From NCBI RefSeq assembly GCF_001677475.2, contig NZ_CP015229.1: a stretch of 64,000 nucleotides of DNA, one strand, 5' to 3'. The number at the start of each line of letters is the position of its first letter. Positions within the stretch are counted from its first letter, which is position 1. Source of the DNA: Escherichia coli. Lineage in GTDB: Bacteria > Pseudomonadota > Gammaproteobacteria > Enterobacterales > Enterobacteriaceae. Under the pieces are notes generated by a model that worked only from the letters and a program-made list of their open reading frames with translations, ran no database searches and had not been told where the DNA came from. The position numbers were made by a program, and so were the translations under genes. This document shows, in pieces, positions 17,701-20,700 of the stretch.

Positions 17701-20700
17701 GATTAGCAACAGCGGAAAAGGCATGACGGATAGCAACGGGGTTGCAATCGCCTCCCTGACCGGCACGTTAGCGGGCACGCATATGATCACGGCTCGTCTG
17801 GCTAACAGCAATGTCAGCGATACACAGCCAATGACGTTTGTGGCGGATAAAGACAGAGCGGTTGTCGTTCTGCAAACATCGAAAGCGGAAATCATTGGGA
17901 ATGGCGTGGATGAGACAACTCTGACAGCAACAGTGAAAGATCCTTTTGATAACGTGGTTAAAAATCTGTCAGTAGTCTTCCGCACCTCCCCCGCAGACAC
18001 GCAACTGAGTCTGAAGGCGCTTAATACTAATGAGAACGGTATTGCTGAAGTTACCCTTAAGGGCACGGTTTTGGGTGTTCATACAGCCGAAGCCATACTG
18101 CTTAACGGTAAAAGCGATACGAAAATCGTCAATATTGTGCCCGATACCAGCAACGCGCAGGTCACCCTGAACATCCCGGCTCAACAGGTGGTGACGAATA
18201 ACAGCGACAGCGTGCAGCTGACGGCGACGGTGAAAGATCCGTCGAATCATCCGGTGGCGGGAATAACGGTGAACTTCACCATGCCTCAGGACGTGGCGGC
18301 AAACTTTACCCTTGAAAATAACGGTATTGCCATCACTCAGGCCAATGGCGAAGCGCATGTCACCCTCAAAGGTAAAAAAGCGGGCACGCATACGGTTACC
18401 GCAACGTTGGGTAACAATAATGCCAGCGATGCGCAACCAGTCACATTCGTGGCGGATAAGGACAGCGCAGTTGTCGTTCTGCAAACATCGAAAGCGGAAA
18501 TCATTGGGAATGGCGTGGATGAGACGACTCTGACAGCAACAGTGAAAGATCCTTTTGATAACGCAGTAAAAGATCTACCGGTTACCTTCAGTACCAAGCC
18601 GGCAGATACTCAACTTAGTCAGAGCACAAGCAATACTAACGACAGTGGTGTTGCTGAAGTTACCCTTAAGGGCACGGTTTTGGGTGTTCATACAGTCGAA
18701 GCCACACTGCTTAACGGCAATGGCTATACGACGACAGTCAATATTGCGCCCGATGCCAGCAACGCGCAGGTCACCCTGAACATCCCTGCTCAACAGGTGG
18801 TGACGAATAACAGTGACAGCGTGCAGCTGACGGCGACGGTGAAAGATCCGTCGAATCATCCGGTGGCGGGAATAACGGTGAACTTCACCATGCCTCAGGA
18901 CGTGGCGGCAAACTTTACCCTTGAAAATAACGGCATTGCCATCACTCAGGCCAATGGCGAAGCGCATGTCACGCTGAAAGGTAAAAAAGCGGGCACGCAT
19001 ACGGTTACCGCAACGCTGGGTAATAACAATACCAGTGATTCGCAGCCGGTAACATTTGTGGCGGACAAAACCTCGGCTCAGGTTGTCCTGCAGATGTCAA
19101 AAGATGAGATCACAGGTAATGGCGTCGATAACGCAACGCTAACTGCAACGGTTAAAGATCAGTTCGACAATGAGGTGAACAATCTTCCGGTAACATTCAG
19201 CTCAGCCTCTTCAGGACTCACCCTGACCCCGGGAGTAAGTAATACCAATGAGTCTGGCATCGCGCAGGCCACTCTCGCAGGCGTTGCCTTTGGTGAACAG
19301 ACGGTCACTGCATCACTGGCTAATAATGGTGCCAGCGACAACAAAACTGTGCATTTTATTGGCGACACAACGGCGGCAAAAATTATCGAGTTGACGCCTG
19401 TCCCAGACAGCATAATCGCCGGTACCCCGCAGAACAGCTCCGGCAGCGTCATCACCGCCACAGTCGTTGATAATAATGGCTTTCCGGTGAAAGGTGTGAC
19501 TGTGAACTTCACCAGCAACGCAGCGACAGCCGAAATGACGAACGGCGGTCAAGCCGTGACGAACGAACAGGGTAAGGCTACCGTCACTTATACCAATACC
19601 CGCTCCTCGATAGAATCAGGAGCGAGACCGGATACCGTTGAGGCCAGTCTGGAAAATGGTAGCTCCACGCTTAGCACATCAATTAATGTCAACGCTGATG
19701 CGTCTACGGCACATCTCACCTTGCTACAGGCACTTTTTGATACAGTCTCCGCAGGCGACACTACCAATCTGTATATTGAGGTGAAGGATAATTACGGCAA
19801 CGGTGTACCCCAGCAGGAGGTAACCCTCAGAGTATCACCAAGTGAAGGCGTGACCCTCAGTAATAACGGTATAAATACTACCAACCACGACGGCTATTTA
19901 TACGGAAGCATGACCGCTACAAAAGCCGGGGTTTATCAAGTGACGGCAACCCTCGACAATGGCGATTCGATGCAACAAACAGTGACCTATGTGCCGAACG
20001 TCGCGAATGCTGAAATCTCGCTGGCAGCCTCGAAGGATCAGGTGATTGCCGACAATAACGATCTCACGACACTAACAGCAACAGTCGCTGATACAGAGGG
20101 CAATGCGATAGCCAACACTGAGGTAACATTTACTCTGCCGGAAGATGTGAAGACGAACTTCACGCTGAGCGATGGCGGTAAAGCGATTACGGATACTGAC
20201 GGCAAAGCGAAAGTCACGCTGAAAGGTACAAAAGCAGGCGCTCATACTGTTACAGCATCGATGACTGGCGGTAAGAGTGAGCAGTTGGTGGTGAACTTTA
20301 TTGCGGATACGCTCACTGCGCAGGTTAATCTTAACGTTACCGAGGACAACTTTATCGCCAATAACGTTGGGATGACCACACTTCAGGCAACAGTGACTGA
20401 TGGAAACGGCAACCCGTTAGCCAATGAGGCGGTGACATTCACGCTACCGGCAGATGTAAGCGCAAGCTTCACTCTCGGACAAGGCGGTTCCGCCATTACT
20501 GACATCAACGGCAAGGCTGAAGTTACACTGAGCGGTACAAAATCCGGCACTTATCCCGTGACAGTTAGCGTGATCAATTATGGTGTCAGTGATACGAAAC
20601 AGGTGACTTTGATTGCCGATGCTGGTACCGCAAAACTGACCTCCTTAACCTCTGTATACTCATTCGTCGTCAGCACGACCGAGGGCGCAACCATGACGGC

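Follow-up and report, generated by a model that had tools for sequence, protein, structure and literature searches.

The question raised by this locus is whether the tandem repeat in the stalk of the YeeJ adhesin, found in the 64,000-nucleotide stretch of Escherichia coli DNA analysed here (the window), is a recent event in this isolate or an older property of the gene. A preliminary description of the locus favoured a recent duplication. By comparing the yeeJ sequence with itself, with K-12 and with other alleles, we arrive at a different answer: the repeat is probably the product of an old duplication, the copies of which were homogenised and which is carried by a long yeeJ allele that is already known.

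The yeeJ gene and its predicted product

14735–22738, + strand: yeeJ, encoding an intact adhesin of the inverse autotransporter (type Ve) class, as judged from the ORF listing, Pfam and the alignment with K-12
14346–14421: tRNA-Asn

The yeeJ reading frame runs from an ATG at 14735 to a stop at 22738 and encodes 2667 amino acids without internal stops, beginning with the same N-terminal residues (MATKKRSGEE) as the K-12 protein. In the ORF listing an extended yeeJ frame starts at a TTG at 14660. The K-12 protein is 2358 amino acids long, and the preliminary description gave the length of the frame correctly and was right that it is longer than the K-12 allele. The N-terminus shows 98–99% nucleotide identity with K-12 yeeJ and the first 3.2 kb of the gene 98%, and the best yeeJ match among complete E. 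coli genomes shows at most 96.0% identity to the window's allele.

Pfam analysis places the barrel domain (IAT_beta, PF11924) at amino acids 144–419 (E = 2.6e-113), followed by Invasin_D3 matches at amino acids 533–709 and by a passenger of 16 Big_1 domains (PF02369) from amino acid 741 to 2357. An Invasin_D4 match is found near the C-terminus, and a lectin domain is absent among the Pfam matches listed. The C-terminal 300 amino acids align end to end with those of K-12 at 69% identity; the last 250 amino acids, searched against the sequences in the PDB, gave no match. The NCBIfam inverse-autotransporter N-terminal models also match, with scores below their equivalog cut-offs. LysM appears as a partial, weak match at amino acids 79–99 (E = 0.39), a domain whose function was demonstrated experimentally for K-12 YeeJ (Martinez-Gil et al., 2017; PMC5595812). 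Collinear alignment with the annotated K-12 locus gives the K-12 gene order, mtfA, tRNA-Asn, yeeJ and a family-9 glycosyltransferase (GT9). The barrel, the Big_1/Invasin_D3 passenger and the position of the locus all fit the assignment of this gene to the inverse autotransporter (type Ve) adhesins.

Geometry of the repeat

The yeeJ frame was compared with itself at all in-frame offsets from 150 to 3000. A single offset stands out, 609, whose best 300-nucleotide window reaches 96% identity, while the runners-up reach 64% (1218, a by-product) and 58% (309). A repeat search gave copies 609 bp apart, and Tandem Repeats Finder reported nothing because its maximum period is 500. The two units, and the Big_1 domains (designated c to h) that they cover, are placed as follows.

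17840–18448, + strand: first unit (copy 1) of 203 codons or 609 bp, spanning Big_1 domain d and most of e (offset-609 identity map, unit alignment, Pfam)
18449–19057, + strand: second unit (copy 2), likewise of 609 bp, spanning Big_1 domain f and most of g (offset-609 identity map, unit alignment)
17552–17842: Big_1 domain c (Pfam)
17864–18133: Big_1 domain d (Pfam)
18158–18451: Big_1 domain e (Pfam)
18473–18742: Big_1 domain f (Pfam)
18767–19060: Big_1 domain g (Pfam)
19082–19360: Big_1 domain h (Pfam)

These results bear out the preliminary description in its central observation, a tandem direct repeat at this place, in which a unit of two Ig domains in the passenger stalk has been duplicated in frame. 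The interval that it gave, 17858–19091, points to the right place and has to be replaced by the in-register units listed above, and its period of about 617 bp has to be corrected to 609 bp. It was also right that the units are far more alike than the other Big repeats: in pairwise comparison of the 16 Big_1 domains, e and g share 95% of their nucleotides and 98% of their amino acids, d and f share 84% and 77%, respectively, and the remaining 118 pairs do not exceed 63% nucleotide identity.

The description of the units as nearly identical holds for parts of them, in blocks of 95–100% identity, and fails for the whole. Between the two copies 63 of the 609 nucleotides differ (89.7% identity), and 178 of the 203 amino acids are identical. 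Along the unit, identity by block is 96.5%, 63.2%, 95.3% and 76.7%, where the second block is a patch at unit positions 116–202 (87 nucleotides), the third is the high-identity block at 203–566 and the fourth is a tail at 567–609 (43 nucleotides). Such uneven identity is unlike what a fresh duplication would leave. Each copy thereby has its own marks:

17955–18041, + strand: patch of the d type in copy 1, at unit positions 116–202 (unit alignment); this version is also found in one-copy alleles
18564–18650, + strand: f-type patch of copy 2, diagnostic of multi-copy alleles (unit alignment, genome BLAST)
18406–18448, + strand: e-type tail ending copy 1, which marks each non-terminal copy; 77% identity to the g-type tail
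19015–19057, + strand: g-type tail ending copy 2, identical to the K-12 tail and matching the tail of one-copy alleles
18206–18324 (= 18815–18933), + strand: longest perfect repeat tract, 119 nucleotides, within the block of 95% identity at unit positions 203–566

The perfect tract is an available substrate for recombination.

Relation to K-12 and to the published long variant

Measured from anchor to anchor, the window's yeeJ is exactly 906 bp longer than that of K-12. The excess over K-12 is thus 906 bp, or three domains, and not one 609-bp unit: six Big_1 domains (c to h) stand where K-12 has three, and the stalk totals are 16 and 13.

17921–17943, + strand: left edge of the 906 bp that K-12 lacks; LTATVKD motif in domain d, CTGACAGCAACAGTGAAAGATCC (BLAST breakpoints, junction alignment)
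18827–18849, + strand: right edge of the 906 bp that K-12 lacks; LTATVKD motif in domain g (BLAST breakpoints, junction alignment)
17534–17554, + strand: site of the published primer 4225 (primer sequence from PMC5595812)
19113–19132, − strand: site of the published primer 4226, with one mismatch (primer sequence from PMC5595812)

The left and right edges of the K-12 gap have in common an 11-nucleotide exact match, GTGAAAGATCC. K-12 probably owes its short allele to an independent in-frame deletion with its endpoints in the conserved LTATVKD motifs of two domains; the loss would have been 297 bp if the starting allele had one copy and 906 bp if it had two.

A long yeeJ variant, that of strain UMN026, was described as 906 bp longer than the MG1655 gene, with the 906-bp fragment consisting of three extra Big domains of repeated sequence (Martinez-Gil et al., 2017; Sci Rep 7:11326, PMC5595812). 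The window's allele and the UMN026-type YeeJ are alike in the gene, the chromosomal site, the 906-bp excess between primers 4225 and 4226 (predicted amplicon in the window, 1599 bp) and the three extra repeated Big domains. Judged by sequence, the repeat in the window is this already published long UMN026-type allele, since the excess, the flanking primers and the three repeated domains all agree. Prevalence is similar as well: of the 2,918 genomes with a match to the repeat region, 1,233 (~42%) cover it whole, to be set beside 8 of 26 and 17 of 44 yeeJ-PCR-positive strains in the two published PCR screens (PMC5595812). In the biofilm assays of that paper, the sole published functional comparison known, the long and short YeeJ did not differ. 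The available text of the paper describes two variants only, and to these our analysis adds the 609-bp periodicity, one-copy and three-copy alleles and the mosaic nature of the copies. The one-copy and three-copy alleles, together with indications that unequal crossover or gene conversion is still going on between the copies, appear to go beyond the published account as far as its available text extends. A literature search on yeeJ repeat instability gave nothing relevant.

Distribution of the repeat and age of the duplication

The whole repeat region is covered in 1,233 of 5,426 complete E. coli genomes, the f patch specific to copy 2 is found in 1,224 of them (about a fifth), and the d-type patch in 1,098 (megablast). 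Five two-copy alleles were examined at the outset, that of O157:H7 among them, and in each a copy with d patch and e tail is followed by a copy with f patch and g tail. Orthologous copies in different strains are 96–99% identical, against 87–90% for the two copies within one strain, which argues that the duplication predates the divergence of the alleles.

This evidence bears directly on the possibility that the duplication is recent and specific to the window's isolate or a close lineage. In its favour one can cite the perfect tracts of up to 119 nucleotides and the 98% amino acid identity of e and g, and truly recent expansion does occur at yeeJ, as seen in strain NCTC9038, where each block of the middle copy is 100% identical to the matching block of one of its neighbours. 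Yet the same layout, with its 63% patch, is found in ~1,200 genomes of unrelated lineages, and copy 1 of the window is 99.2% identical to copy 1 of 81EVA and only 89.7% identical to the window's own copy 2; copy 2 in turn is 98.0% identical to copy 2 of GF124.3. An isolate-specific recent duplication is refuted by the orthologue identities, the common marks of the copies and the prevalence of the f patch, and we regard it as next to impossible. The comparison of yeeJ with itself and with other alleles, which the preliminary description had proposed as a check, thus upheld the repeat and contradicted its recency: the copy-specific marks are common to five two-copy alleles, and orthologues are closer than copies within a strain.

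Another possibility is that the copy number is an artefact of assembly, either a collapsed three-copy or an expanded one-copy array. A short-read assembler that collapsed a three-copy array of the form d/e, f/e, f/g would give exactly the appearance of two copies. Against this stand the 63 differing positions and the unique marks of each copy, by which the copies assemble unambiguously, and the fact that in complete genomes, most of them from long reads, multi-copy alleles overwhelmingly have two copies, with three-copy alleles in 29 of ~1,224. An artefact is accordingly very improbable.

The preliminary description also expected the repeat number to vary between strains, and one-, two- and three-copy alleles were indeed found. 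Anchor-to-anchor lengths relative to the window are −906, −609, 0 and +609 bp, and this observed ladder corresponds to at least four stalk lengths in E. coli, of 13, 14, 16 and 18 Big_1 domains. One-copy alleles (7374 and 7398 bp were seen) are rare, in 15–49 genomes; these numbers are bounds, as megablast ran into the flank, two-copy alleles reached 81% coverage and the coverage threshold was blurred. All three one-copy alleles examined have the d patch and the g tail, and three-copy alleles have the order d/e, f/e, f/g; both arrangements are predicted by a crossover between patch and tail. One three-copy allele, that of VCSW7, has a junction unlike those of the others, and therefore expansion arose more than once.

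Probable homogenisation of the copies

The mechanism that best fits these data would start from the old 609-bp duplication, after which homologous exchange out of register, whether by unequal crossover or by gene conversion, probably homogenised the greater part of each copy. The 87-nucleotide patch and the 43-nucleotide tail would then be relics of an older, more diverged copy, and the same exchange on the near-identical block of ~360 bp probably still adds or removes whole 609-bp units. Several observations are consistent with exchange of this kind. The crossover points of the one-copy and three-copy alleles fall in the 95%-identical block (unit positions 203–566). The f patch occurs in both copies in B19374 and 6EVA, and twice per genome in 58 genomes. 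In the middle copy of NCTC9038, the 203–566 block and the tail are 100% identical to copy 1, and positions 1–115 and the patch are 100% identical to copy 3. Within a 256-nucleotide e/g block, copies in one strain differ by no more than orthologues in different strains, and some variants are common to both copies of one allele, such as a C at unit position 447 that is found in the window only. With its junctions in the high-identity block and the f mark moved to the other copy, the array has the sequence features of concerted evolution.

The origin of the patch has to be considered separately. Domains d and f are 63–64% identical within the patch and 93% outside it. When the patch is compared with the sibling domain h, d agrees with h and not with f at 12 sites and f agrees with h and not with d at 10, a symmetric divergence. 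No donor for the f patch or the e tail emerged when the whole window, K-12 yeeJ and one one-copy allele were searched by short-word BLAST, and when an f-patch donor was sought by sensitive blastn in 5,426 E. coli genomes, only the yeeJ copies themselves came back. All hits to the patch, in 1,224 genomes, have at least 90% identity, and all those listed lie under yeeJ-type adhesin annotations. From the symmetry against h and the lack of a donor in these searches we infer that the f patch reflects old paralogy. We also considered whether an earlier regular arrangement of the form (c,d)(e,f)(g,h) lies beneath the repeat. It was dropped for domain c, which is 55–57% identical in nucleotides to e and g, the background level, and was kept only for the d/f/h subfamily (60–62% nucleotide identity).

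A different history would begin with a one-copy ancestor. In one form of it, the group of long alleles began with one duplication of 609 bp and later imported the divergent f patch and the e tail; in another, divergent one-copy alleles (d patch/e tail and f patch/g tail) crossed over out of register. One-copy alleles do exist, the copies are as alike outside patch and tail as alleles are among themselves, and the strong mosaicism of yeeJ alleles shows that recombination between alleles is common at the locus. This history is nevertheless unlikely to us, as the f-type patch is restricted to multi-copy alleles in the 5,426 genomes, one-copy alleles are rare, and the d patch with g tail in three of three one-copy alleles is the predicted product of contraction from two copies. 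An old duplication with homogenised copies remains our preferred reading; the age of the duplication and the direction of change between one and two copies are what we infer from the alleles compared. Outgroup alleles were sought by scanning a one-genome-per-species collection for the e/g motif in the form of a degenerate DNA pattern, DPSNHPVAGITVNF, which gave no match; the pattern matched the window twice and 13 of 14 fetched loci.

Other adhesins with tandem domains

Long in-frame tandem repeats that correspond to whole folded domains are a feature of the staphylococcal proteins Bap, SasG and Aap and of the streptococcal Alp and Rib proteins, where copy number shifts by homologous recombination between repeats and the length of the surface stalk is altered. 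These proteins are Gram-positive and cell-wall-anchored, with domain families unrelated to those of YeeJ, and their repeats are usually many and near-identical, whereas those of yeeJ number one to three and are mosaic. The invasin-like inverse autotransporter of Yersinia ruckeri is reported to have almost identical tandem Ig domains in its stalk as well, as cited in Goh et al. (2019; PMC6714894), who also note that tandem sequence repeats in general can produce gene misassembly; the gene and the species differ from E. coli yeeJ.

Significance for YeeJ and its stalk

The long YeeJ allele is a known and common polymorphism, and beyond correct annotation its repeat is of little consequence. It is a genuine feature and no assembly error, so annotators need not treat it as suspect. 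Short-read assemblies may miscount yeeJ copies, and PCR screens for the "906-bp fragment" will also yield products of 990 bp (one copy) and 2208 bp (three copies).

By analogy with the rod-like structures of invasin and intimin, each added domain may lengthen the surface rod by ~3.5–4 nm. One can then imagine the 609-bp unit as a recombination-driven length module, repeatedly gained and lost, with copies that are still exchanging and a stalk selected to match the thickness of surface glycans such as O-antigen or capsule; we hold this to be possible but doubtful, and that the length ladder is both undescribed and adaptive is a conjecture. With its four-step ladder and its relic patch, yeeJ offers a tidy natural case of concerted evolution in a bacterial adhesin stalk, and the ladder could be used to ask whether stalk length matters under a thick O-antigen or capsule.

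The adhesin gene and its surroundings

The adhesin gene in the window is yeeJ: the window and the K-12 locus are collinear (tRNA-Ser, mtfA, tRNA-Asn, yeeJ and a family-9 glycosyltransferase, in this order in both), and the first 3.2 kb of the gene show 98% identity to K-12 yeeJ. The protein length given in the preliminary description is borne out when translation starts at the K-12 ATG:

14660-22738, + strand, longest ORF across the repeat region (ORF listing)
14735-22738, + strand, yeeJ coding sequence, ATG start as in K-12 yeeJ; 2667 aa, no internal stop
aa 144-419, IAT beta domain (inverse autotransporter), E = 2.6e-113

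Pfam places Invasin_D3/Big_1 repeats along the length of the passenger, with 16 Big_1 domains in all, and an Invasin_D4 match close to the C-terminus; the LysM match is weak and no C-terminal lectin domain was detected by sequence in this YeeJ. The presumed binding tip (last 300 aa) is just 69% identical to that of K-12, the 3' third of the gene (21000-22738) is a mosaic whose closest relative switches between segments (80-99% nt), and the best whole-gene identity among complete E. coli genomes is 96.0%. The window allele is intact; the long yeeJ alleles of 81EVA, O157:H7 Z1835, NCTC9038 and 6EVA carry a pseudogene annotation in RefSeq (frameshifts or internal stops).

The first ~12 kb of the window (1-13212) are lambdoid prophage DNA whose genes include those for an exonuclease, a DnaT-like protein and a YdaT toxin, matched at 99% identity by prophages in just four complete genomes. 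The prophage ends in a 341-aa ORF (12187-13212), a position held by an integrase in other strains, adjoining tRNA-Ser (13265-13354). A stretch of 22 kb contains four tRNA-Asn (GTT) genes (14346, 29072, 30896 and 35721), the first directly upstream of yeeJ. Between yeeJ and the glycosyltransferase, ~370 bp (22796-23168) stand in place of ~55 bp in K-12; this segment is single-copy and unannotated, and only 191 of the 5,426 complete genomes searched have it, with an identity of 92-95%.

A 609-bp tandem repeat of two Ig-like domains

The ORF was compared with itself at all in-frame offsets from 150 to 3000, scored by the best 300-nt window. The sole outlier is 609 bp (96% identity), followed by its by-product 1218 (64%) and by 309 (58%), and the same spacing was returned by a separate repeat search of the window. 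Tandem Repeats Finder reported no repeat for the yeeJ region, solely because its period is limited to 500. A tandem repeat had been proposed at 17858-19091 with a unit of ~617 bp; the repeat is there, but its period is 609 bp and its register 17840-19057. The Pfam placement of the six consecutive Big_1 domains, here c to h, is as follows:

17552-17842, Big_1 domain c
17864-18133, Big_1 domain d
18158-18451, Big_1 domain e
18473-18742, Big_1 domain f
18767-19060, Big_1 domain g
19082-19360, Big_1 domain h
17840-18448, copy 1 (d and most of e)
18449-19057, copy 2 (f and most of g)

From this placement the unit encodes two Ig-like domains (203 aa), and its in-frame tandem duplication makes the stalk longer, as the preliminary description proposed. 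Domains e and g share 95% nt and 98% aa identity and d and f 84% nt and 77% aa, whereas every other pair drawn from the 16 Big_1 domains stays at or below 63% nt, in line with the preliminary description. Two minus-strand ORFs lie antisense in this region (17536-18066, 176 aa; 17969-18484, 171 aa).

The copies were also said to be nearly identical, which is true of blocks but not of the full unit. They differ at 63 of 609 positions (89.7% identity; 178 of 203 residues the same) and are mosaic:

unit positions 1-115, 96.5% identity between copies
unit positions 116-202, the patch, 63%; d-type 17955-18041, f-type 18564-18650
unit positions 203-566, 95.3%, including a perfect 119-nt tract (18206-18324)
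unit positions 567-609, the tail, 77%; e-type 18406-18448, g-type 19015-19057

Length classes across E. coli

In a search of 5,426 complete E. coli genomes, 2,918 match the repeat region and 1,233 of them cover it in full. Length classes were defined by how far apart two conserved anchors lie (17735-17794 and 19400-19459 in the window), and in 12 alleles this distance was exactly -906, -609, 0 or +609 bp relative to the window, confirming that repeat number varies; two additional two-copy alleles also gave 0.

Length classes of yeeJ (counts out of 5,426 genomes)
K-12 type: gene 7077 bp; K-12; about 1,600 genomes (approximate)
One-copy: gene 7374 / 7398 bp; GN06156, C-SRM-3, O157:H16 Santai; between 15 and 49 genomes (bounds)
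Two-copy: gene 7983 / 8004 / 8025 bp; window, 81EVA, GF124.3, O157:H7 Z1835, Z0117EC0005; about 1,200 genomes (approximate)
Three-copy: gene 8592 / 8613 bp; G1/2, NCTC9038, 1190, VCSW7; 29 genomes, each matching a three-copy query full-span in a single piece

The implied relation to K-12, a difference of one repeat unit, is wrong, as the two genes differ by 906 bp or three domains. K-12 yeeJ lacks the window sequence from 17921/43 to 18827/49, and the junction contains an exact 11-nt match, GTGAAAGATCC, within a 23-nt stretch bearing three mismatches. It falls in the LTATVKD(P) motif, conserved in both d and g, so that between c and h K-12 has one hybrid domain with its head from d and its body from g. 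A deletion of 297 bp, one domain long, would turn a one-copy allele into the K-12 allele; starting from a two-copy allele, the deletion would be of 906 bp.

The sections consulted of Martinez-Gil et al. (2017; PMC5595812) report MG1655-type and UMN026-type yeeJ variants that are a 906-bp passenger fragment apart, a fragment of repeated sequence that adds three Big domains, and the screening primers of that paper flank the window repeat, with a predicted product of 1599 bp:

17534-17554, + strand, primer 4225 site, 1 mismatch
19113-19132, - strand, primer 4226 site, 1 mismatch

The window thus carries an already described, common yeeJ allele. One-copy and three-copy alleles, and mosaic concerted evolution between copies, are not mentioned in those sections.

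Age of the duplication

The duplication had been called recent, and this does not hold. All five two-copy alleles first examined carry the same order of marks, with the d patch and e tail in copy 1 and the f patch and g tail in copy 2. In a sensitive search of the 5,426 genomes the f patch was found in 1,224, every match at 90% identity or more, twice in 58 genomes, and all the matches listed fall under yeeJ-type adhesin annotations. The window and 81EVA agree at 99.2% in copy 1, and the window and GF124.3 at 98.0% in copy 2; as orthologous copies are closer than the window's own two (89.7%), the duplication is older than the split between these alleles and is a polymorphism of the whole species.

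Within the patch, d and f are 64% identical, close to the 53-56% that each shows to the sibling domain h, against 93% outside it. Domain d matches h but not f at 12 patch sites and f matches h but not d at 10, and these near-equal numbers indicate that the f patch is old sibling sequence and not a mutated copy of d. No donor of the f patch was found elsewhere in the yeeJ gene or in the 5,426 complete genomes searched. We therefore favour an old duplication that would later have been homogenised along most of the unit, the patch and the tail remaining as relics. Less probable, but the main rival, is that the unit was duplicated later and took in imported sequence, or that divergent one-copy alleles crossed over out of register; a DNA-pattern scan of a collection with one genome per species gave no outgroup allele that would decide between them.

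Signs of exchange between copies

Writing each copy as patch type/tail type, a crossover of misaligned copies between patch and tail would yield a one-copy d/g allele and a three-copy d/e, f/e, f/g allele, and both products were found. The middle copy of VCSW7 has a tail that differs from those of the other three-copy alleles, so expansion occurred more than once. In NCTC9038 every block of the middle copy is matched at 100% by one neighbour, positions 1-115 and the patch by copy 3 and the 203-566 block and tail by copy 1; this expansion is a genuinely recent event. Two two-copy alleles, B19374 and 6EVA, have the f patch in both copies, which could come from conversion or from contraction of a three-copy array. 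Over a 256-nt e/g block, divergence between the two copies of one strain is no greater than that between orthologous copies of different strains, and some variants are common to both copies of one single allele. These allele patterns show signs of ongoing exchange between copies.

Implications for the stalk

In the one published test, biofilm formation was reported not to differ between the two yeeJ forms (PMC5595812, in the sections consulted). The extra unit gives the window stalk two Ig-like domains more than one-copy alleles and three more than K-12. Judging by the rod-like structures of invasin and intimin, each domain would add about 3.5-4 nm. The extra length may affect reach or antigenicity.
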